From: Escherichia coli
GTDB taxonomy: Bacteria > Pseudomonadota > Gammaproteobacteria > Enterobacterales > Enterobacteriaceae
Reading direction: 5' to 3' (one strand)
Assembly: GCF_044324785.1 (NCBI RefSeq)
Contig: NZ_CP172127.1
Length of the DNA stretch: 64,000 bases
Shown here piece by piece: positions 8,758 through 58,760 of the stretch (its first letter is position 1; each line of letters starts with the position of its first letter). The notes below the pieces were generated by a model that was given only the letters and a program-made list of their open reading frames with translations, had not been told where the DNA came from and did no database searches. A program made the position numbers and the translations under genes.

Positions 8758-8899
8758 GGTAAAGCCCTCACCGAAGCGAGGGCTTGAAGGAGAAGGGTTA
8801 TGATGCGACTTGTCATCATACTGATTGTACTGTTACTCATAAGTTTCCCAGCTTATTAACAGTCAGTCTCAGGGGAGGAGTCATCCTCCCTTACCCTTA
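8758..8899 (-). ncRNA. sibC: SibC antisense sRNA (antitoxin of ibsC); boundaries approximate
   Basis: Minus-strand TTGACA (8929-8934) - 17 nt - TAATTT (8906-8911) promoter; GCCCTC..GAGGGC hairpin plus UUU at 8764-8783; ~140 nt fully overlapping ibsC on opposite strand. Confidence 0.65.
8800..8859 (+). CDS. ibsC: type I toxin, 19-aa hydrophobic peptide IbsC (MMRLVIILIVLLLISFPAY)
   Basis: ATG ATG CGA CTT GTC ... TAT TAA read directly; GAAGGAGAAGG RBS 4-14 nt upstream; location in serA-ygfA intergenic region. Confidence 0.8.
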   Translation: MMRLVIILIVLLLISFPAY

Positions 8900-8959
8900 C
8901 TCACTAAATTAGGTTAAAGAATCAACGATGTCAATCAGGGCGATGCAGGTGTGTCGCCC

Positions 8960-9582: not shown

Positions 9583-9766
9583 GGAATCTCCGAGATGCCG
9601 CCGCAGGCTGTAACCCTTGAACCCTTGGTTCAAGGTGAATGTGTCGTCGCAGTTTTAAGGCTTCTCGGACGGACCGAGCATGCTCACCAACCGCGGAGCG
9701 CCACATTCTTGTGGTATGAAATATCGGCTCAGGGGACTGGCCCGCTTGCGAACATCTCAGAGAAAT
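9583..9766 (-). ncRNA. ssrS: 6S RNA (RNA polymerase sigma70-holoenzyme regulator), ~184 nt
   Basis: Reverse complement reads ATTTCTCTGAGATGTTCGCAAGCGGGCCAGTCCCCTGAGCCGATATTTCATACCACAAGAATGTGGCGCTCCGCGGTTGGTGAGCATGCTCGGTCCGTCCGAGAAGCC..., matching the 6S RNA sequence as I recall it; immediately upstream of ygfA. Confidence 0.9.
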
Positions 9767-13431: not shown

Positions 13432-14634
13432 ATGCAAAGTGTTGATGTAGCCATTGTTGGCGGCGGCATGGTGGGGCTGGCGGTTGCCTGCGGCTTGCAG
13501 GGTAGTGGCTTACGCGTTGCCGTACTGGAGCAGCGCGTACCGGAACCTCTGGCGGCGGATGCACCACCACAACTGCGCGTTTCGGCTATCAATGCCGCCA
13601 GCGAAAAATTACTCACCCGTCTTGGCGTCTGGCAGGACATTCTCTCTCGTAGGGCCAGCTGTTATCACGGTATGGAAGTGTGGGACAAAGACAGCTTTGG
13701 TCACATTTCGTTTGACGATCAAAGCATGGGCTATAGCCATCTTGGGCATATCGTTGAAAATTCAGTGATTCACTACGCGCTGTGGAACAAAGCGCAGCAG
13801 TCGTCAGATATCACTCTGTTAGCCCCCGCAGAATTACAGCAGGTCGCCTGGGGAGAAAATGAAACCTTCCTGACGCTGAAAGATGGCAGCATGTTAACGG
13901 CGCGTCTGGTGATTGGCGCGGACGGCGCTAATTCCTGGTTGCGCAACAAAGCCGATATTCCGCTGACTTTCTGGGATTATCAGCATCACGCGCTGGTAGC
14001 GACCATTCGCACGGAAGAACCGCATGATGCGGTGGCGCGGCAGGTTTTCCATGGCGAAGGCATTCTGGCCTTTTTACCGCTTAGCGATCCGCATCTTTGC
14101 TCGATTGTCTGGTCACTGTCGCCAGAGGAAGCGCAGCGGATGCAGCAGGCAAGTGAAGACGAATTTAATCGCGCGTTAAATATCGCTTTTGATAATCGCC
14201 TGGGCTTATGCAAGGTTGAGAGCGAGCGTCAGGTGTTCCCGCTGACGGGGCGTTATGCCCGCCAGTTTGCCGCACACCGTCTGGCGTTGGTGGGCGACGC
14301 CGCGCATACTATTCACCCGCTCGCGGGGCAGGGCGTTAATCTCGGCTTTATGGATGCCGCAGAGCTGATTGCCGAACTGAAACGGTTGCATCGTCAGGGT
14401 AAAGACATCGGGCAGTACATTTACCTGCGTCGCTATGAGCGTAGCCGTAAGCACAGTGCGGCGCTGATGCTGGCTGGTATGCAGGGATTTCGCGATCTGT
14501 TTTCCGGTACCAATCCGGCGAAAAAACTGCTGCGTGATATTGGTCTGAAACTGGCCGACACGCTTCCTGGCGTTAAACCACAACTTATCCGCCAGGCAAT
14601 GGGATTAAACGATTTGCCTGAATGGCTGCGTTAA
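13432..14634 (+). CDS. ubiI: 2-octaprenylphenol hydroxylase (FAD monooxygenase), 400 aa
   Basis: FAD fingerprint VAIVGGGMVGLAVA; paralog of and adjacent to ubiH. Confidence 0.9.
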   Translation: MQSVDVAIVGGGMVGLAVACGLQGSGLRVAVLEQRVPEPLAADAPPQLRVSAINAASEKLLTRLGVWQDILSRRASCYHGMEVWDKDSFGHISFDDQSMGYSHLGHIVENSVIHYALWNKAQQSSDITLLAPAELQQVAWGENETFLTLKDGSMLTARLVIGADGANSWLRNKADIPLTFWDYQHHALVATIRTEEPHDAVARQVFHGEGILAFLPLSDPHLCSIVWSLSPEEAQRMQQASEDEFNRALNIAFDNRLGLCKVESERQVFPLTGRYARQFAAHRLALVGDAAHTIHPLAGQGVNLGFMDAAELIAELKRLHRQGKDIGQYIYLRRYERSRKHSAALMLAGMQGFRDLFSGTNPAKKLLRDIGLKLADTLPGVKPQLIRQAMGLNDLPEWLR

Positions 14635-14678
14635 AAATTTCTCCTCTGTTGTTTATTTGATACCCATCACACTTTCAT

Positions 14679-14706
14679 CTCCCGGTTTTTTCGCCGGGAG
14701 ATTTTC
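14679..14706 (+). terminator. rho-independent terminator after ubiI
   Basis: CTCCCGG...CCGGGAG stem followed by ATTTTCC. Confidence 0.55.
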
Positions 14707-14719
14707 CTCATTTGAAATA

Positions 14720-15081
14720 AACTAATTTCACCTCCGTTTTCGCATTATATTTTCTAATGTCACGAATTTTTGATTTAGTGTTTTTTGACATTTTTTCAGT
14801 TCTTAATATTGCTTTATTCAAATTAAGTTTCTCATCACATCATCTTTGTATAGAAACTGGAATGTTTTTTGGTTTTTTATTCTGTTGCTATTCTGGCGTT
14901 TTTTAACCATAAGCTAATGTGATGATCAATTTTACCTTATGGTTAACAGTCTGTTTCGGTGGTAAGTTCAGGCAAAAGAGAACGATTGCGTTGGGGACCG
15001 GGAGTGGCTCCGATGCTGGGTTTCGTGGTGATAATTTCGCCATGGAAAAGTTGTCAGCCCCGCTTATTCAATGAGGACAAG
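14720..15081 (+). promoter_or_regulatory. gcvTHP control region (AT-rich, CTAAT-containing)
   Basis: ~360-bp AT-rich leader upstream of gcvT with CTAAT motifs at 14722-14726 and 14754-14758; exact promoter not mapped. Confidence 0.45.
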
Positions 15082-16176
15082 ATGGCACAACAGACTCCTT
15101 TGTACGAACAACACACGCTTTGCGGCGCTCGCATGGTGGATTTCCACGGCTGGATGATGCCGCTGCATTACGGTTCGCAAATCGACGAACATCATGCGGT
15201 ACGTACCGATGCCGGAATGTTTGATGTGTCACATATGACCATCGTCGATCTTCGCGGCAGCCGCACCCGGGAGTTTTTGCGTTATCTGCTGGCGAACGAT
15301 GTGGCGAAGCTCACCAAAAGCGGCAAAGCCCTTTACTCGGGGATGTTGAATGCCTCTGGCGGTGTGATAGATGATCTCATCGTCTACTATTTTACTGAAG
15401 ATTTCTTCCGCCTCGTTGTTAACTCCGCCACCCGCGAAAAAGACCTCTCCTGGATCACCCAACACGCTGAACCTTTCGGCATCGAAATTACCGTTCGTGA
15501 TGACCTTTCCATGATTGCCGTGCAAGGGCCGAATGCGCAGGCAAAAGCTGCCACACTGTTTAATGACGCTCAGCGTCAGGCGGTGGAAGGGATGAAACCG
15601 TTCTTTGGCGTGCAGGCGGGCGATCTGTTTATTGCCACCACTGGTTATACCGGTGAAGCGGGCTATGAAATTGCGCTGCCCAATGAAAAAGCGGCCGATT
15701 TCTGGCGTGCGCTGGTGGAAGCGGGCGTTAAGCCATGCGGCCTGGGCGCGCGTGACACGCTGCGTCTGGAAGCGGGTATGAATCTTTATGGTCAGGAGAT
15801 GGACGAAACCATCTCTCCGTTAGCCGCCAACATGGGCTGGACTATCGCTTGGGAACCGGCAGATCGTGACTTTATCGGTCGTGAAGCCCTGGAAGTGCAG
15901 CGTGAGCATGGCACAGAAAAACTGGTTGGTCTGGTGATGACCGAAAAAGGCGTGCTGCGTAATGAACTGCCGGTACGCTTTACCGATGCGCAGGGCAACC
16001 AGCATGAAGGCATTATCACCAGCGGTACTTTCTCTCCGACGCTGGGTTACAGCATTGCGCTGGCGCGCGTGCCGGAAGGTATTGGTGAAACAGCGATTGT
16101 GCAAATTCGCAACCGTGAAATGCCGGTTAAAGTGACGAAACCTGTTTTTGTGCGTAACGGTAAAGCCGTCGCGTGA
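15082..16176 (+). CDS. gcvT: glycine cleavage system T protein (aminomethyltransferase), 364 aa
   Basis: ORF 14959..16176 trimmed to ATG at 15082 with [32 protein letters not shown]. Confidence 0.9.
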
Positions 16177-16199
16177 TTTACTTTTTTGGAGATTGATTG

Positions 16200-16589
16200 A
16201 TGAGCAACGTACCAGCAGAACTGAAATACAGCAAAGAACACGAATGGCTGCGTAAAGAAGCCGACGGCACTTACACCGTTGGTATCACCGAACATGCCCA
16301 GGAGCTGTTAGGCGATATGGTGTTTGTTGACCTGCCGGAAGTGGGCGCAACGGTTAGCGCGGGCGATGACTGCGCGGTTGCCGAATCAGTAAAAGCGGCG
16401 TCAGACATTTATGCGCCAGTAAGCGGTGAAATCGTGGCGGTAAACGACGCACTGAGCGATTCCCCGGAACTGGTGAACAGCGAACCGTATGCAGGCGGCT
16501 GGATCTTTAAAATCAAAGCCAGCGATGAAAGCGAACTGGAATCACTGCTGGATGCGACCGCATACGAAGCATTGTTAGAAGACGAGTAA
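16200..16589 (+). CDS. gcvH: glycine cleavage system H protein (lipoyl carrier), 129 aa
   Basis: [20 protein letters not shown]; lipoyl-lysine context [12 protein letters not shown]. Confidence 0.9.
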
Positions 16590-16707
16590 CGGCTTTATTC
16601 CTCTTCTGCGGGAGAGGATCAGGGTGAGGAACTTTTACGCCTCACCCTCACTCTCTTCGCAAGGAGAGAGGTTCACAATTCACTGCACGTTTCAGGAACC
16701 ATCGCTC

Positions 16708-19581
16708 ATGACACAGACGTTAAGCCAGCTTGAAAACAGCGGCGCTTTTATTGAACGCCATATCGGACCGGACGCCGCGCAACAGCAAGAAATGCTGAAT
16801 GCCGTTGGCGCACAATCGTTAAACGCGCTGACCGGCCAGATTGTGCCGAAAGATATTCAGCTTGCGACCCCGCCGCAGGTTGGCGCACCGGCGACCGAAT
16901 ACGCCGCGCTGGCGGAACTCAAGGCTATTGCCAGTCGCAATAAACGCTTCACGTCTTACATCGGCATGGGTTACACCGCCGTGCAGCTACCGCCGGTTAT
17001 TCTGCGTAACATGCTGGAAAATCCGGGCTGGTATACCGCGTATACTCCGTATCAACCTGAAGTCTCCCAGGGCCGCCTTGAAGCACTGCTCAACTTCCAG
17101 CAGGTAACGCTGGATTTGACCGGGCTGGATATGGCCTCTGCTTCTCTTCTGGACGAGGCCACTGCTGCCGCCGAAGCAATGGCGATGGCGAAACGCGTCA
17201 GCAAACTGAAAAATGCCAACCGCTTCTTCGTTGCTACTGACGTCCATCCGCAAACGTTGGATGTGGTACGTACTCGTGCCGAAACCTTTGGTTTTGAAGT
17301 GATTGTCGATGACGCGCAAAAAGTGCTCGACCATCAGGACGTCTTCGGCGTGCTGTTACAGCAGGTTGGCACAACCGGTGAAATCCACGACTACACTGCG
17401 CTCATCAGCGAACTGAAATCACGCAAAATTGTGGTCAGTGTCGCCGCCGATATTATGGCGCTGGTGCTGTTAACTGCGCCGGGTAAACAGGGCGCGGATA
17501 TTGTTTTTGGTTCGGCGCAACGCTTTGGCGTACCGATGGGTTACGGTGGCCCACACGCGGCATTCTTTGCGGCGAAAGACGAATACAAACGCTCAATGCC
17601 GGGCCGTATTATCGGTGTATCGAAAGATGCAGCTGGCAACACCGCTCTGCGCATGGCGATGCAGACTCGCGAGCAACATATTCGTCGTGAGAAAGCGAAC
17701 TCCAACATTTGTACTTCCCAGGTGCTGCTGGCAAACATCGCCAGCCTGTATGCCGTTTATCACGGCCCGGTTGGCCTGAAACGTATCGCTAACCGCATTC
17801 ACCGTCTGACCGATATCCTGGCGGCGGGCCTGCAACAAAAAGGTCTGAAACTGCGTCATGCGCACTATTTCGACACCTTGTGTGTGGAAGTGGCCGACAA
17901 AGCGGGCGTACTGACGCGTGCCGAAGCGGCTGAAATCAACCTGCGTAGCGATATCCTGAACGCGGTTGGGATCACCCTTGATGAAACCACCACGCGCGAA
18001 AACGTGATGCAGCTTTTCAGCGTGCTGCTGGGCGATAACCACGGGCTGGAGATCGACACGCTGGACAAAGACGTGGCTCACGACAGCCGCTCTATTCAGC
18101 CTGCGATGCTGCGCGACGACGAAATCCTCACCCATCCGGTGTTTAATCGCTACCACAGCGAAACCGAAATGATGCGCTATATGCACTCGCTGGAGCGTAA
18201 AGATCTGGCGCTGAATCAGGCGATGATCCCGCTGGGTTCCTGCACCATGAAACTGAACGCCGCCGCCGAGATGATCCCAATCACCTGGCCGGAATTTGCC
18301 GAACTGCACCCGTTCTGCCCGCCGGAACAGGCAGAAGGTTATCAGCAGATGATTGCGCAGTTGGCTGACTGGCTGGTGAAACTGACCGGTTACGACGCCG
18401 TTTGTATGCAGCCGAACTCTGGCGCACAGGGCGAATACGCGGGCCTGCTGGCGATTCGTCATTATCATGAAAGCCGCAACGAAGGGCATCGCGATATCTG
18501 CCTGATCCCTGCCTCTGCGCACGGCACTAACCCGGCTTCCGCGCATATGGCAGGCATGCAGGTGGTGGTTGTGGCGTGTGATAAAAACGGCAACATCGAT
18601 CTGACTGATCTGCGCGCGAAAGCAGAACAAGCGGGCGATAACCTCTCCTGTATCATGGTGACCTATCCTTCCACCCACGGCGTGTATGAAGAAACGATCC
18701 GTGAAGTGTGTGAAGTCGTGCATCAGTTCGGCGGTCAGGTTTACCTTGATGGCGCGAACATGAACGCCCAGGTCGGCATCACCTCACCGGGCTTTATTGG
18801 CGCGGACGTCTCGCACCTTAACCTGCATAAAACTTTCTGCATTCCGCACGGTGGCGGCGGCCCTGGTATGGGACCGATCGGCGTGAAAGCGCATCTGGCA
18901 CCGTTTGTGCCAGGTCATAGCGTGGTACAAATTGAAGGCATGTTAACCCGTCAGGGCGCGGTTTCTGCGGCACCGTTCGGTAGCGCCTCTATCCTGCCAA
19001 TCAGCTGGATGTACATCCGCATGATGGGCGCAGAAGGGCTGAAAAAAGCAAGCCAGGTGGCAATTCTTAACGCCAACTATATTGCCAGCCGCCTGCAGGA
19101 TGCCTTCCCGGTGCTGTATACCGGTCGTGACGGTCGCGTGGCGCACGAATGTATTCTCGATATTCGTCCGCTGAAAGAAGAAACCGGCATCAGCGAACTG
19201 GATATTGCCAAGCGTCTGATCGACTACGGTTTCCACGCGCCGACCATGTCATTCCCGGTGGCGGGTACGCTGATGGTTGAACCGACCGAATCCGAAAGCA
19301 AAGTGGAACTGGATCGCTTTATCGACGCGATGCTGGCTATCCGCGCAGAAATTGACCAGGTGAAAGCCGGTGTCTGGCCGCTGGAAGATAACCCGCTGGT
19401 GAACGCGCCGCACATTCAGAGCGAACTGGTCGCCGAGTGGGCGCATCCGTACAGCCGTGAAGTTGCGGTATTCCCGGCAGGCGTGGCAGACAAATACTGG
19501 CCGACAGTGAAACGTCTGGATGATGTTTACGGCGACCGTAACCTGTTCTGCTCCTGCGTACCGATTAGCGAATACCAGTAA
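16708..19581 (+). CDS. gcvP: glycine dehydrogenase (decarboxylating) P protein, 957 aa
   Basis: ORF 16624..19581 trimmed to ATG at 16708 ([21 protein letters not shown]); PLP-enzyme length and composition. Confidence 0.9.
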
Positions 19582-33443: not shown

Positions 33444-33794
33444 GTTTTTGCGAGGAAGGGGAGTTAGAGACAGGAATTGCGGAGGCAATCACATAATCGT
33501 GGTTAAACCACGAAAATGAGAAGAGAACCTGACAATGGAATTATCTGTAATTTTCTCATATTGATATTTCATTAATCATTCTGGCATGTCGCACTCTCGC
33601 TTTTAATCGTTTTTATCTGGATAGCGCTCTTTTGGTCGGCAATGTTGAAATAATGAAAGCGGCACAGATTGAGGGGCAATAATTTGAACTCAGTCGCAAA
33701 ATTATAATTAAAACGGTCATGCTACCTAATATATGCCCGTTTATTGCATCGCGAAATTTGAGAAGACATAACTCATTAAATGAAAGGGATGCAA

Positions 33795-35714
33795 ATGAAT
33801 AAGTTTATCGCTGCTGAAGCTGCGGAATGTATAGGCTGTCATGCTTGTGAAATTGCCTGTGCGGTGGCACATAATCAAGAAAACTGGCCGCTGAGTCACA
33901 GTGACTTTCGACCGCGTATCCACGTTGTAGGGAAAGGCCAGGCTGCGAATCCGGTGGCCTGCCATCACTGCAACAATGCTCCTTGCGTTACGGCTTGTCC
34001 GGTTAATGCTCTGACTTTCCAGCCCGATAGCGTACAACTGGACGAGCAAAAATGTATTGGTTGTAAAAGATGCGCAATCGCTTGCCCCTTTGGCGTCGTT
34101 GAGATGGTCGATACGATTGCGCAGAAATGCGACCTTTGTAACCAGCGCAGTTCCGGCACGCAAGCCTGTATTGAAGTCTGCCCAACACAGGCGTTACGGC
34201 TGATGGACGATAAAGGGTTGCAGCAGATAAAGGTGGCCCGCCAGCGCAAAACGGCAGCAGGAAAAGCGTCATCAGACGCTCAGCCATCTCGCAGTGCAGC
34301 GTTGCTCCCCGTTAACTCGCGTAAAGGCGCAGATAAAATTTCAGCGAGTGAACGGAAAACCCACTTTGGCGAAATTTATTGCGGGCTGGATCCACAACAA
34401 GCGACTTTTGAGAGTGACCGCTGTGTTTATTGCGCCGAAAAAGCTAACTGCAACTGGCATTGCCCGCTGCATAACGCTATTCCGGATTACATCCGTCTGG
34501 TGCAGGAAGGAAAGATTATTGAAGCGGCAGAACTTTGCCACCAGACCAGTTCCTTGCCAGAAATCTGCGGCAGAGTTTGCCCACAGGACCGTCTTTGTGA
34601 AGGCGCATGTACTTTGAAAGATCACTCTGGCGCAGTCTCTATCGGGAATCTGGAACGCTACATCACCGATACCGCGCTGGCGATGGGCTGGCGTCCCGAT
34701 GTCAGCAAAGTTGTTCCCCGTAGCGAAAAAGTGGCGGTGATTGGCGCAGGGCCTGCAGGGTTAGGGTGTGCTGATATTCTGGCGCGCGCAGGAGTTCAGG
34801 TTGATGTCTTTGATCGCCATCCAGAAATTGGCGGTATGCTGACTTTTGGCATACCTCCTTTCAAACTCGATAAAACGGTATTAAGCCAGCGGCGAGAGAT
34901 ATTCACCGCAATGGGAATCGACTTTCATCTTAACTGTGAAATTGGCCGCGATATTACCTTTAGCGATTTAACTTCTGAATATGATGCAGTTTTCATCGGC
35001 GTGGGGACTTACGGGATGATGCGAGCAGATCTGCCGCATGAAGATGCGCCCGGTGTCATTCAGGCTCTACCGTTCCTGACTGCCCATACCCGCCAGCTCA
35101 TGGGGTTGCCGGAGTCTGAAGAGTATCCGCTGACGGATGTGGAAGGTAAGCGAGTCGTGGTATTGGGCGGTGGCGATACGACCATGGATTGTTTGCGGAC
35201 TTCCATCCGCCTCAATGCCGCCAGCGTGACCTGCGCGTATCGTCGTGATGAAGTCAGTATGCCGGGCTCGCGCAAAGAGGTGGTCAATGCGCGCGAGGAA
35301 GGTGTTGAGTTTCAGTTCAATGTTCAGCCGCAATATATCGCTTGTGACGAAGATGGGCGTTTAACTGCGGTGGGCCTGATTCGTACAGCCATGGGTGAGC
35401 CGGGGCCGGATGGTCGCCGTCGTCCTCGTCCGGTAGCGGGTTCAGAATTTGAATTGCCCGCCGATGTTCTGATTATGGCCTTTGGTTTCCAGGCGCATGC
35501 CATGCCGTGGTTGCAGGGCAGCGGAATTAAACTCGATAAATGGGGCCTGATTCAAACCGGTGACGTTGGGTATTTACCTACCCAGACGCATCTGAAAAAA
35601 GTCTTTGCTGGTGGTGATGCAGTTCATGGCGCGGATCTGGTTGTCACTGCAATGGCCGCAGGAAGGCAGGCGGCGCGCGATATGTTAACTCTGTTTGATA
35701 CGAAGGCATCGTGA
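33795..35714 (+). CDS. ygfT: AegA-like oxidoreductase: N-terminal 4x[4Fe-4S] ferredoxin domain fused to GltD-like FAD/NAD(P) domain, 639 aa
   Basis: Four CxxCxxCxxxCP motifs; dinucleotide fingerprint [21 protein letters not shown]; start at third ATG of ORF 33780..35714. Confidence 0.85.
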
Positions 35715-45567: not shown

Positions 45568-48500
45568 TTACACCTCCACGCGGCCCAGCAGATAATGATG
45601 ATGCTGGTGGACATGGCTAATGATGCGGCACATATCGTTCAGCTCCGGTGGTACGTTGTTGAACTGACCTTCGCTGTCGATGTTTAACACCCAGCTTTGG
45701 TTATTCAGACGTACTCGTACCCGGCAATCTTCCACAAGGAAGCCTGGGTTGCTGCTGTTATCAAAGTCTTGCGACAGGCTGAAGACGGTGATTTTGTCTT
45801 TGTACGGTTTACCGTTCCACGGACAGAACTGAGCGCAGTTGCCGCATTCGTTACAGTAAGCGTCGAGGTGCAGCGTCTGGAAACGGTTCTGGAAGCCAGG
45901 GACCGCAATGGAGACGTTGGCGCGGTTCGGGCAGACATCCACACACTTGCTGCAAACGTAGTTACATTCAAGGCAGCGAGCAGCTTCCTGCGCGACAAAC
46001 GCATCACGATCGTCACTGTTCACCAGCGTGATAGAGATATCGCCTTTACGTTGATAGATTTCCGCCGGATTGACGTTGTTCCAGTATTTATCGTTCTGGT
46101 GGGAACGGATATTTTCCCGACTAAGGATGGCATCGGTCGCCCGACGCGCGGTTCCGACAGCAGCGACAATGGAGGATGGTCCGCGCTGTACGTCGCCGAT
46201 CATAAAGACGTCAGTCAGACGAGTTTCGCCATTATGGTCGACGTCTGGCCAGCCGTTTTTGTCCAGCGGCACGCCCATCGCATTCAGGGCTTCAGTATCC
46301 TGCTGTTCACCAATGGCGGTGATCAGGCTGTCTACATGCAGTGTTACTGTTTCGTTGGTTTCAACCGGACGGCGACGACCTTTCTCATCAGGTTCGCCAA
46401 GCGACATAACGCGCAAGGTTAAGGTGCCATCAGCATCGAAACGTTCCGGATTATTCAGGAAACGGAACTCCACGCCGTCGTGCAACGCTTCTTCATACTC
46501 TTCGCGCCATGCTGGCATCTCTTGCAGTGAACGACGGTAAACGACCGTTGCTTTTTCTACGCCTGGAACGCGTAACGCCGCACGAGCGCAGTCCATTGCC
46601 GTGTTACCCGCCCCGACAACGACCACATGTTTGCCCAGCTTGAGCGCTGTGCCCTTGTTGTATTCACGCAGGAAGGGGAGTGATTTCCAGACATTTTGGT
46701 TGTCGCCCGCCAGTTTCACACCGCTATTTTTATCAGTGCCGGTGGCAATCAGAACATAGTGGAAGCCCTGATTTTTTAACTGTTCAACGGTCAAATCGGG
46801 TGAGCAGCCATACTCAAATTTCACGCCGTGAGCGGCAACAAAATCGATATCGTGCTGAATTAACTCTGCAGGAATACGGAACTGAGGAATGATATTTTTC
46901 ACCACGCCGCCCGCATTGGCTTCGCGTTCAAACAGCGTAACCGGATGGCCCGCTCTGGCAAGGAAGTAACCTGCTGCCAGACCCGCCGGACCTGCACCAA
47001 TCACGGCAACCGGATGGCGTGAACCAGAACCGGCTGGTTTGTGCCAGCGTTGCTTATATTCATCCCAACCTTTTTCCAGCGCGACTTTTTTCAGTTCGCG
47101 GATATTCAGCGCACTGTCGTAATCCAGGCGGGTACAGTTGTATTGGCACTGGTGATCGCAAATATGACCGGTAATGGCGGGCAGGGCGTTGCGTTGGTAG
47201 ATGAGTTCCAGTGCGTCGGCATAGCGGTGTTCGCCAAGCAGACGGATGTATTCCGGAATATCCTGTTTAATGGCGCAAGCAGTAACGCACGGTGCAACGT
47301 AGCAGTCGGTCAGCGGCAGGTCTTCTGCCACTTCAATACGCTCTTCTGGCTTCCAGTGTTTCTGAGTGTATTCCATGGTTAACGCGTCTGCTGCCAGTTT
47401 GTTCAGTCGTTCGACGTCAACATGGTCAAGCCCCCAGGCGTCGGAGCCTTCCAGCTCGCGCATGCAGGCACTTAAGCGCAGATAGCCGCCAGGTTTCAGC
47501 AGGTCGGTTGCCATCGTGATAGGGCGAATACCAGTATCAAAAATATCGCGGATAGTCAGCTGACTGGCACCACCGGAATAAGAAATGGGCAGTTTGCCGT
47601 CAAAGGCGCGAGAGAGAACTGCTGCAACATTGATGGAGAGCGGGAACAGCGCACGGCCTGACATATACATCTCTTCACCAGGCAGTGCGCCTTTATTGTT
47701 GATGGTGCCGAGAGTGTTAGTCAGTTTTACGCCAAAGCCGAGTGATTTTTCTTTTGCCAGTGCCATCAGACGTTCCAGCATTTCCAGTGCTTGCGTCAGC
47801 TTGAGGTCGTGATCAAATGACTCTTCTTTTAAGCCTATGTAACCGAAACCGCAGACATCGAGGATCTCACGAACACGCGCGTACCCCAGTAAGGTCGGGT
47901 TGAGTTTCACAAAGGTATTGAGCCCTTTTTCTTCCAGCATGTAGCGGCAAATGGCTTCGATTTCATGCGGAGGACAGCCGTGCATGGTGGAGAGGGTGAC
48001 GCCCTGCACCATGCTGGTGGGGATGCGAGCGGGTAAGGCTTGCAAGCTTTCGCGTTTTTCCTGCAATCCGTGGCGGGCTAAAAATGCGTCATCCTGGAGT
48101 AATTTATTCAGCGTATCGCGATATTGAGCGAATTTCGGATGGTCAGATGCGTCCATCATATTGTCGATGAACTGTTGCATCGGCGGTTGCTTAATACCTT
48201 CGAGGTTGTAACCGACGCTCATATTAAAGATGAACGATTTACCGGAATCAGAAGGCTGGAACATCGCTTCGAGAAGGTGCAGGGCAAACCAGGCTTTGAG
48301 GTATTCATCCCAGGCTTTAAGCAGGGTAAATTCGGTGGACCATTCGGTGTTAAAGCACTCGTCTTCGGCATCAATACAGGGCTTTTCCAGCTCCAGGCGG
48401 TCAAGAATTTGGACGGTTTTTAGTTCGATGAAGCGTCCGCCAGTCAGCCAGGAAGTGACAATATTTTGCGCGAGCTGCGTGTGCGGGCCAGCGGCAGGGC

Positions 48501-48666
48501 CGACGGGAGTGGCACAGGTTTCACCGAAGACGCTAACAGTTTTACCTTTTACGGGTGAGTAAAACTGTTGCTCGGGAATACCAAAGATTGAGCGTTGTTG
48601 TTGGTATTCATCAAATATGCGCGTCAAAAGTTCCTCAAACGGAATGGGACGCATAATATCCCCCAT
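45568..48666 (-). CDS. ygfK: large Fe-S flavoprotein oxidoreductase (GltD/dihydropyrimidine-dehydrogenase-like with 4Fe-4S clusters), 1032 aa
   Basis: Dinucleotide fingerprints [28 protein letters not shown] and VVVVGAGNTAMDCARAAL; ferredoxin motifs CLECNYVCSKCVDVCP and CNECGNCAQFCP; AGGAG RBS. Confidence 0.85.
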   Translation of the reverse strand: MGDIMRPIPFEELLTRIFDEYQQQRSIFGIPEQQFYSPVKGKTVSVFGETCATPVGPAAGPHTQLAQNIVTSWLTGGRFIELKTVQILDRLELEKPCIDAEDECFNTEWSTEFTLLKAWDEYLKAWFALHLLEAMFQPSDSGKSFIFNMSVGYNLEGIKQPPMQQFIDNMMDASDHPKFAQYRDTLNKLLQDDAFLARHGLQEKRESLQALPARIPTSMVQGVTLSTMHGCPPHEIEAICRYMLEEKGLNTFVKLNPTLLGYARVREILDVCGFGYIGLKEESFDHDLKLTQALEMLERLMALAKEKSLGFGVKLTNTLGTINNKGALPGEEMYMSGRALFPLSINVAAVLSRAFDGKLPISYSGGASQLTIRDIFDTGIRPITMATDLLKPGGYLRLSACMRELEGSDAWGLDHVDVERLNKLAADALTMEYTQKHWKPEERIEVAEDLPLTDCYVAPCVTACAIKQDIPEYIRLLGEHRYADALELIYQRNALPAITGHICDHQCQYNCTRLDYDSALNIRELKKVALEKGWDEYKQRWHKPAGSGSRHPVAVIGAGPAGLAAGYFLARAGHPVTLFEREANAGGVVKNIIPQFRIPAELIQHDIDFVAAHGVKFEYGCSPDLTVEQLKNQGFHYVLIATGTDKNSGVKLAGDNQNVWKSLPFLREYNKGTALKLGKHVVVVGAGNTAMDCARAALRVPGVEKATVVYRRSLQEMPAWREEYEEALHDGVEFRFLNNPERFDADGTLTLRVMSLGEPDEKGRRRPVETNETVTLHVDSLITAIGEQQDTEALNAMGVPLDKNGWPDVDHNGETRLTDVFMIGDVQRGPSSIVAAVGTARRATDAILSRENIRSHQNDKYWNNVNPAEIYQRKGDISITLVNSDDRDAFVAQEAARCLECNYVCSKCVDVCPNRANVSIAVPGFQNRFQTLHLDAYCNECGNCAQFCPWNGKPYKDKITVFSLSQDFDNSSNPGFLVEDCRVRVRLNNQSWVLNIDSEGQFNNVPPELNDMCRIISHVHQHHHYLLGRVEV

Positions 48667-48748
48667 AACCCTCTCCTTAGCTTATACAGATATCATTGAG
48701 TGACCGGTGTTGAGAAATCCGGTGGTTTAGGGGGATAGAGCAACAATC

Positions 48749-48764
48749 GCACCACTCTTGCCAG
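48749..48764 (-). promoter_or_regulatory. candidate sigma54 promoter upstream of ygfK (CTGGCAAG-N4-GTGC)
   Basis: Minus-strand CTGGCAAGAGTGGTGCG read by eye; GG/GC spacing correct; ~85 nt upstream of ygfK ATG. Confidence 0.35.
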
Positions 48765-48817
48765 GTTTGGCGGGAAATATAAAAAAATGTGAGGCGGCTC
48801 GAAACTTAGGAGCTTTT

Positions 48818-48833
48818 TGTGAATGAACTCACA
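48818..48833. promoter_or_regulatory. perfect CRP core site TGTGA-N6-TCACA
   Basis: tttTGTGAatgaacTCACAgg read directly in ygfK upstream region. Confidence 0.5.
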
Positions 48834-48987
48834 GGTGCCAAATGAGAATTAAAATCACTCCTGAAAATTATTATTGCCAGCCCATTTATCACTTTTTCTC
48901 TTTTCTCAAAATCAGTGATTCCTTATCATTATGATAAAGAGAACTGGAAGGGTTAAATATTTGAACGCAATCGTTTAACTACGTTTT

Positions 48988-49566
48988 CTAAATTTCAGTA
49001 TACCTTTTTTTCGCTGTAATAAAGTCGTCCGGAGTATCAATATCTAAAATTATTTCTGCATTTTCTATTTCGACGGAATAATGTTCTCCCATAAGGAGTG
49101 CCTGACGCATATTGGTGATATTGGGACGCTGGATTGCCTGCATCAGGCATGGCTTTGACACTAAAATCGGATGGCCGGGAATGCCATTATGGAGTGGCAG
49201 TATTGCGCCATCATTTCGTAACGACCAGATTTTCCTAAAAATATCGATGGTGAGGGTAGGCATGTCACCGTGGGTGAGAAAACAATATTCTGTTTGTACC
49301 GCGGGTACTGCGGCCTTTACTGATGTTAGTAAACCCTGTGCATAATCTGGGTTATGGATAATAGTGATATTGCTCTGGTTCGCATAACGCTTGTGCAGTT
49401 CATTACCACGATAGCCGGTGACTAAAATAATTCGGCTACAAAACTGCAACGCATTTTTGATACTTGTATCAAGAATTGTTCCCTGTTGCCAGGGTAACAT
49501 CATTTTCCATTGCCCCATTCTTGATGATAATCCGGCAGCGGTAATTATACAGTCGATGGCTGACAT
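48988..49566 (-). CDS. mocA: molybdenum cofactor cytidylyltransferase (MobA-like nucleotidyltransferase), 192 aa
   Basis: N-terminal ITAAGLSSRMG nucleotidyltransferase motif; full ORF. Confidence 0.85.
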   Translation of the reverse strand: MSAIDCIITAAGLSSRMGQWKMMLPWQQGTILDTSIKNALQFCSRIILVTGYRGNELHKRYANQSNITIIHNPDYAQGLLTSVKAAVPAVQTEYCFLTHGDMPTLTIDIFRKIWSLRNDGAILPLHNGIPGHPILVSKPCLMQAIQRPNITNMRQALLMGEHYSVEIENAEIILDIDTPDDFITAKKRYTEI

Positions 49567-58284: not shown

Positions 58285-58760
58285 AAAGTCCCGGTAGTGG
58301 AATGACAGGCAAAGAGGTTTATTTCACTGTGACTTGCCAAAAGTGATTGGTCTTTTCACAGCTATACCTGGGACTAACAATAACTATGCCAGAATTATCC
58401 AAGCGGCTGCAAAAGACTAATTTGACGGGTAATGTGTGGGGTTGATCACAAATTGATGCCAGCTTCTGGTTGTTTGTAAAATACGAAAACGTTTGGCTTT
58501 TTTTATCGCGTTATTTATTTGCTGCTAAGTATCAGAAATAAGATAAAGGGGCAGGTTATCCCTCGTCAGTTTGATAAACTCACCGCCGTAATTCTCATAT
58601 TGATATAGAAATGTGATATCTCTTCCATAATTTCATTAGAAAGTGATAAAAATCTTATGTTTTTATCAAAGCCAATTTCGTCTGAGTTAATATCATCATG
58701 ATCTGTGAACCATCAACGTCTTCAATGATCGACTTTTAAGTAAGTCTGGAAGGTAAAGCT

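Follow-up and report, generated by a model that had tools for sequence, protein, structure and literature searches.

The window that we analysed is a stretch of 64,000 nucleotides of Escherichia coli (contig NZ_CP172127.1), and the locus considered here is the complete intergenic region between the ubiI stop at 14634 and the gcvT ATG at 15082, i.e., 14635–15081 (447 bp, 36.5% GC). The gcvT-gcvH-gcvP operon (15082..19581, + strand) lies directly 3' of this region and comprises gcvT (15082–16176), gcvH (16200–16589), and gcvP (16708–19581), all on the + strand, while ubiI lies on the upstream side. These gene coordinates are those of the RefSeq annotation of the identical E. coli strain XDL (NZ_CP043033.1), with which the 521 bases spanning the region share 100% identity. 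The GC content drops to a minimum of 27.5% over 14700–14899, compared with 53–62% in the flanking genes, and the description of about 440 bp of AT-rich DNA in front of gcvT given in an earlier note on this DNA agrees well with these measurements.

The region is matched in 5,425 of the 5,426 complete E. coli genomes. The alignment to a characterized gcv region, which the earlier note had proposed as a check, gave 96% identity to K-12 MG1655 over 481 columns without gaps. The window is the same as K-12 at the CTAAT cores, the promoter block, the PurR-type box, the CRP-type site, and the terminator, and the differences, about 20 substitutions, all fall outside the core sites and all but 2 of them inside 14760–14898. 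Judged by its sequence, 14635–15081 is the gcvTHP control region, the counterpart of the E. coli K-12 gcv control region. The feature is already known, being the characterized gcvTHP control region of E. coli, and as a discovery it is minor, since it ranks among the classic E. coli promoters with several regulators. The use of the present analysis lies in a clean annotation of the terminator, the CRP-type site, the GcvA operators, the Lrp spacer, the promoter, the PurR box, the untranslated region (UTR), and yqfI. Its additions are comparative only: the invariant operator spacing, the family-wide form of the operators, the lineage-specific middle CTAAT, and a spacer evolving at a neutral rate.

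CTAAT motifs and predicted GcvA operators

The intergenic region contains three CTAAT motifs, starting at 14722, 14754, and 14914, all of them on the + strand; none is found on the - strand of 14635–15081. Base composition alone predicts 0.38–0.69 occurrences on one strand (P = 0.006–0.03) or 0.8–1.4 on both strands (P = 0.05–0.17), and thus the CTAAT count by itself is weak evidence, marginally above chance. We judged the motifs to be real because they are conserved across species and not because of their number. Homologous regions were retrieved with a degenerate DNA pattern covering codons 1–12 of gcvT, which yielded 71 Enterobacteriaceae loci; the alignment set consists of 65 species, i.e., 64 retrieved loci plus the window, those in which the whole intergenic region could be delimited. 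A typical Enterobacteriaceae ubiI–gcvT region is also found in CACSKA010000005.1, a contig labelled Chryseobacterium sp. 18061; its CTAAT/ATTAG positions are those of Citrobacter sp. 18056 from the same project, and the contig is probably a contamination or a mislabelled assembly.

The CTAAT at 14722 is kept in all 65 species and that at 14914 in 64, but the CTAAT at 14754 is present in only 19 of these 65 Enterobacteriaceae. The middle motif thus appears as a lineage-specific element of Escherichia and a few other genera, and by this alignment broad conservation across the Enterobacteriaceae holds for just two of the three CTAATs. The blocks that are at least 95% identical to the window over the 65 species are 14707–14731, 14738–14758, 14909–14925, 14937–14972, 14977–14992, and the Shine-Dalgarno region.

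The predicted upstream GcvA-binding region (sites 3 and 2; 14704..14763, + strand, boundaries approximate) contains the CTAAT at 14722–14726, an inverted partner ATTAT at 14744–14748, and the CTAAT at 14754–14758. The ATTA at 14744, located 17 bp past the first CTAAT, is kept in 65/65 species, and it is extended to ATTAG in 48 of them and to ATTAT in the window. The predicted promoter-proximal GcvA site 1 (14906..14943, + strand, boundaries approximate) contains the CTAAT at 14914–14918 and, 17 bp downstream, a conserved cTTAT at 14936–14940, the same N17 arrangement as at site 3. The upstream and proximal operators are also the mutual best internal match (22/37 positions, P~0.03). The form shared by the family is, on this comparison, that of two similar operators in the same orientation, with the predicted consensus CTAAT-N17-(A/C)TTA(G/T). 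The claim that the region carries CTAAT motifs of the GcvA type is therefore confirmed: three are present, those at 14722 and 14914 are conserved, and they match the published GcvA motif in the orthologous K-12 region.

The earlier note also stated that no ORF explains this stretch, which is not entirely correct: a small antisense ORF of 27 codons, yqfI, is annotated at 14708–14791 (- strand; RefSeq annotation and translation), antisense to gcvT and over GcvA sites 3/2. Its presence leaves the gcv-control interpretation unaffected. The YqfI allele of the window is MSKNTKSKIRDIRKYNAKTEVKLVYFK, which differs from that of K-12 at residues 9–11. SPA-tagged YqfI has been detected in K-12, and the ORF has also been seen in ribosome profiling (PMC6001520), so that the conserved part of the region might be attributed to yqfI and its own promoter instead of to gcv regulation, the more so as the C-terminal half of the ORF coincides with the strongly conserved block 14707–14758. 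We regard this explanation as very unlikely. Conservation of the ORF is restricted to Escherichia and a few Citrobacter; its ATG is absent or its stop lost in most genera, among which are Salmonella, Klebsiella pneumoniae, and the majority of Citrobacter, although the DNA block is still conserved there. Moreover, yqfI accounts for just 84 bp out of 447, and it varies within E. coli, being truncated in some strains such as Combat13F7. Since the block 14707–14758 is conserved where yqfI is broken, its conservation would reflect the GcvA operator, and yqfI was rejected as its cause and treated as a lineage-restricted overlapping feature.

Predicted promoter, accessory sites, and gcvT leader

The predicted sigma-70 promoter of gcvT (14940..14975, + strand) consists of a weak -35 element, TGGTTA (14940–14945), a 17-bp spacer, and the -10 element TAAGTT (14963–14968), and it would place the transcription start at about 14975 (±2). 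The block TGGTTA-N17-TAAGTT is conserved (mean 0.80, 65 species). A scan with consensus models called no strong promoter and no terminator in the region, and the absence of a consensus promoter fits an activator-dependent one. When E. coli evolved in long-term stationary phase, one specific mutation disrupting the -35 hexamer of gcvT was found in 5/5 populations, and mutations in the gcvA promoter arose later, contingent on it (bioRxiv 10.1101/2020.08.11.246462; 10.1101/2024.03.21.586114). This recurrence indicates that the gcvTHP control region is a repeated target of adaptation.

A PurR-type operator, AAGAGAACGATTGCGT, lies at 14976–14991 (+ strand) and departs from ANGMAAACGTTTKCNT at 2 positions. 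No other block of the region is as well conserved (0.92, 65 species), and with the start placed as above the operator would overlap the transcription start. At the other end of the region, the CRP-type site TTTGAtacccaTCACA (14656–14671, + strand) has 1 mismatch to TGTGA-N6-TCACA, and its right half, ATCACAC, is at least 95% conserved over the 65 species. Wonderling and Stauffer reportedly described, in 1999, a CRP site centred near -313 in the gcv region. In K-12 the GcvA sites are placed at -271 to -214 and -69 to -34, the Lrp-bound stretch at -229 to -92, PurR over +1, and CRP near -313; set on a start at about 14975, these coordinates match the conserved blocks within 2 bp.

The CRP-type site is followed by the intrinsic terminator hairpin of ubiI (14677..14702, + strand), with a 10-bp stem, a 6-nt loop, and a T-rich tail. 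Its predicted fold of -17.6 kcal/mol has a z-score of -5.2, and none of 200 shuffled sequences was as stable. In strain YZ22PE165 (NZ_CP139130.1), an IS1 (2288-2985 of that locus) is inserted at the equivalent of window position ~14686, with the ubiI stop/terminator region on one side and GcvA site 3 on the other, and it splits the CRP-type site from the remaining control region.

The putative 5' UTR of gcvT (14975..15081, + strand, about 107 nt) ends with the Shine-Dalgarno sequence GAGGA (15073–15077). The term leader, which the earlier note applied to the whole stretch, thus suits only these ~107 nt (~14975–15081); the rest would be upstream regulatory DNA plus the ubiI terminator. Glycine riboswitches precede the gcv genes in many species (PMC13104608), and the putative UTR can form three hairpins, so that the stretch could be read as mainly a cis-acting RNA leader, either a riboswitch or an attenuator, controlling gcvT after the start of transcription. 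Several results argue against it. An Rfam scan with 4,227 families (E <= 1) over 13500–16500 on both strands matched nothing, and the predicted fold of the UTR is not significant (z = -1.78; 13/200 shuffles as stable). Across species the UTR is 75–132 nt long, with a conservation of just 0.68, and the bulk of the 447 bp lies upstream of the predicted start. The absence of any Rfam match together with that of a significant UTR structure points to no riboswitch, and the RNA leader, largely rejected on these two grounds, is to our judgement extremely improbable.

Spacing of the operators and variation of the spacer

The first and the third CTAAT are separated by 191–193 bp in every one of the 65 species (sd 0.54). 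Among 14 E. coli strains, 13 have a distance of 192–193 bp, and in the other, SCU-176, the anchor motif was not found. In each species, the -10 hexamer follows the proximal CTAAT at a distance of 49–50 bp. The neighbouring segments vary in length by 57–187 bp: that from the ubiI stop to the operator measures 60–247 bp and that from the -10 to the ATG 75–132 bp. The intergenic regions of Leclercia adecarboxylata NCTC13032 (609 bp) and Intestinirhabdus alba (539 bp) have their extra length between the ubiI stop and GcvA site 3, and the distance from site 3 to site 1 is still 193 bp.

Within this interval, the sequence of 14762–14905 is only ~50% identical to the window across the 65 species. The AT-rich spacer (14760..14898, 139 bp, + strand), where the literature leads us to expect the binding and bending by Lrp, is therefore fixed in length and free in sequence, which is the pattern predicted by a phase-dependent DNA loop. 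These comparative spacing data give independent support to the published DNA-looping model. An AA/TT signal of period 11 in the spacer is above that of shuffled sequences, a mere hint of intrinsic curvature because the species compared are related.

The spacer is also the variable part of the region within E. coli. Over 14755–14905, 3,976 of the 5,425 genomes (73%) are 80–90% identical to the window and 3/5,425 are at least 99% identical, so that the haplotype of the window is rare. Among 13 E. coli strains (the window and 12 retrieved strains, spread along the identity ranking), nucleotide diversity (pi) is 0.10 in the spacer vs 0.013 and 0.008 in the flanking intergenic segments. At 4-fold degenerate sites it is 0.065 in ubiI and 0.058 in gcvT, the value of the spacer being ~1.6 times the mean of both, and at those of the adjacent ubiI 3' end it is 0.104, equal to that of the spacer. 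A single indel, of 1 bp, was found in the 13-strain sample. Strains FDAARGOS_1281 and 2900 show no difference from the window in the 521 bp on either side, yet they differ from it at 12 of 94 positions within 14800–14893. The spacer haplotypes look like recombination mosaics, and within E. coli its rate of change is close to neutral. The data do not support hypermutation or diversifying selection there, since the haplotypes are mosaic and their diversity equals the 4-fold one of the ubiI 3' end; because the latter also reaches 0.10, neutral drift and short recombination tracts suffice.

Our literature search found no prior mention of the variability of the ubiI–gcvT intergenic region. It is conceivable, although we consider it unlikely, that the spacer haplotypes set Lrp occupancy or curvature and thereby tune the expression of gcv (or yqfI) between lineages under diversifying selection; if true, they would represent natural regulatory variation and not a neutral filler. 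The two flanking genes differ in diversity as well: the ubiI 3' end (14100–14620) is 90–95% identical in 882 genomes and has a 4-fold pi of 0.10, while the gcvT 5' end (15100–15620) is at least 99% identical in 1,794 genomes and has a 4-fold pi of 0.009. So sharp a contrast between the two sides suggests that a boundary of recombination or ancestry lies here.

The same data bear on a reading in which the stretch would be an unconstrained AT-rich spacer, or horizontally acquired DNA silenced by H-NS, carrying its CTAATs by chance. The number of CTAATs, not strongly significant by composition, and the about neutral rate of the central 139 bp would be in agreement with it. Nevertheless, gene order and sequence blocks are conserved in 65 Enterobacteriaceae species, the two CTAATs are kept in 65/65 and 64/65 of them at the fixed distance given above, and pi within E. 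coli is 0.008–0.013 in the flanking intergenic segments vs ~0.06 at 4-fold sites. These conservation data refute an unconstrained or horizontally acquired spacer, to which we assign a practically negligible probability.

Proposed control of gcvTHP and relation to known systems

We are highly confident that the region is the E. coli gcvTHP control region, in which GcvA, GcvR, Lrp, PurR, and CRP inputs would act on a weak sigma-70 promoter. The identity of the region, the motif positions, their conservation, and their spacing come from the sequence, binding and the loop from the K-12 literature, and we infer the start and the boundaries. According to this proposal, the weak promoter (-10 TAAGTT at 14963, start near 14975) would drive the glycine-cleavage operon. 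The LysR-type regulator GcvA would bind two operators, one far upstream (14722–14748) and one abutting the -35 (14914–14940), the former probably extended in Escherichia by the extra CTAAT at 14754, and the intervening ~190 bp of AT-rich DNA would be occupied and bent by Lrp. At low glycine, GcvA and GcvR would jointly hold both operators in a repression loop; glycine binding to GcvR would release the loop, and GcvA could then activate from its upstream position. Purine repression may be added by PurR at its box over the predicted start (14976–14991), and the CRP-type site at 14656–14671 may add a carbon-source input. The designation of the stretch as a multi-input control region holds because a predicted PurR-type box and a CRP-type site are found beside the GcvA motifs, and the GcvA/GcvR/Lrp repression loop is published for K-12.

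The K-12 gcv region studied by the Stauffer laboratory is alike in its locus and flanking genes. According to PMC5002191, Wilson et al. (1995) obtained DNase I footprints of GcvA of 35 and 57 bp upstream of gcvTHP, which share 5'-CTAAT-3', a motif important by mutagenesis. These sizes fit the two conserved blocks, the 57-bp footprint the upstream one and the 35-bp footprint the promoter-proximal one, and the three CTAATs of the region lie at the positions where such footprints would be expected. The GcvA consensus has been given as T-N11-A containing CTAAT (PMC3658693). A repression loop of GcvA, GcvR, and Lrp that is released by glycine has been described (PMC13104608), and a cloned gcvTHP promoter was induced by glycine in minimal medium (PMC7019758). 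The region of the window differs from that of K-12 by the substitutions mentioned above, which lie mostly in the spacer and also alter the three YqfI residues.

The divergent gcvA–gcvB promoter region shares with gcvTHP the regulator GcvA and the CTAAT element in inverted half-sites (PMC5002191), but there they have the form ATTAG-N5-CTAAT and are adjacent to the promoter, with centres at -65 and -43. In gcvTHP the pairs are instead CTAAT-N17-ATTA(G/T), and the activating operator would lie ~250 bp upstream and act through the Lrp-bent spacer. The gcvT leaders with a glycine riboswitch (Rfam Glycine family) have the pathway and the glycine signal in common with the region, but they are RNA elements, whereas the control of gcvTHP here would be exerted by proteins on DNA, in a region without an Rfam match.

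Elsewhere in the window, Rfam identified a Sib antitoxin RNA (8784-8934, - strand), opposite the annotated ibsC toxin gene (8800–8859), and the 6S RNA (ssrS; 9583-9766, - strand), both of them ordinary content of E. coli. An IS1A and a 5'-truncated gene for a sigma-54-type regulator lie between uacT and xdhC (~33700-35650), where a gene block of K-12 appears to be missing. Further downstream, an IS4 element splits ygeA, and a tRNA-Gly adjoins yqeG (~47400-49550). Finally, at the 5' end of a gene encoding a DUF4139-domain protein there are a PurR-type box (58483-58498, 1 mismatch) and a CRP-type site (58435-58450, 1 mismatch), their counts being within the chance expectation for the window.
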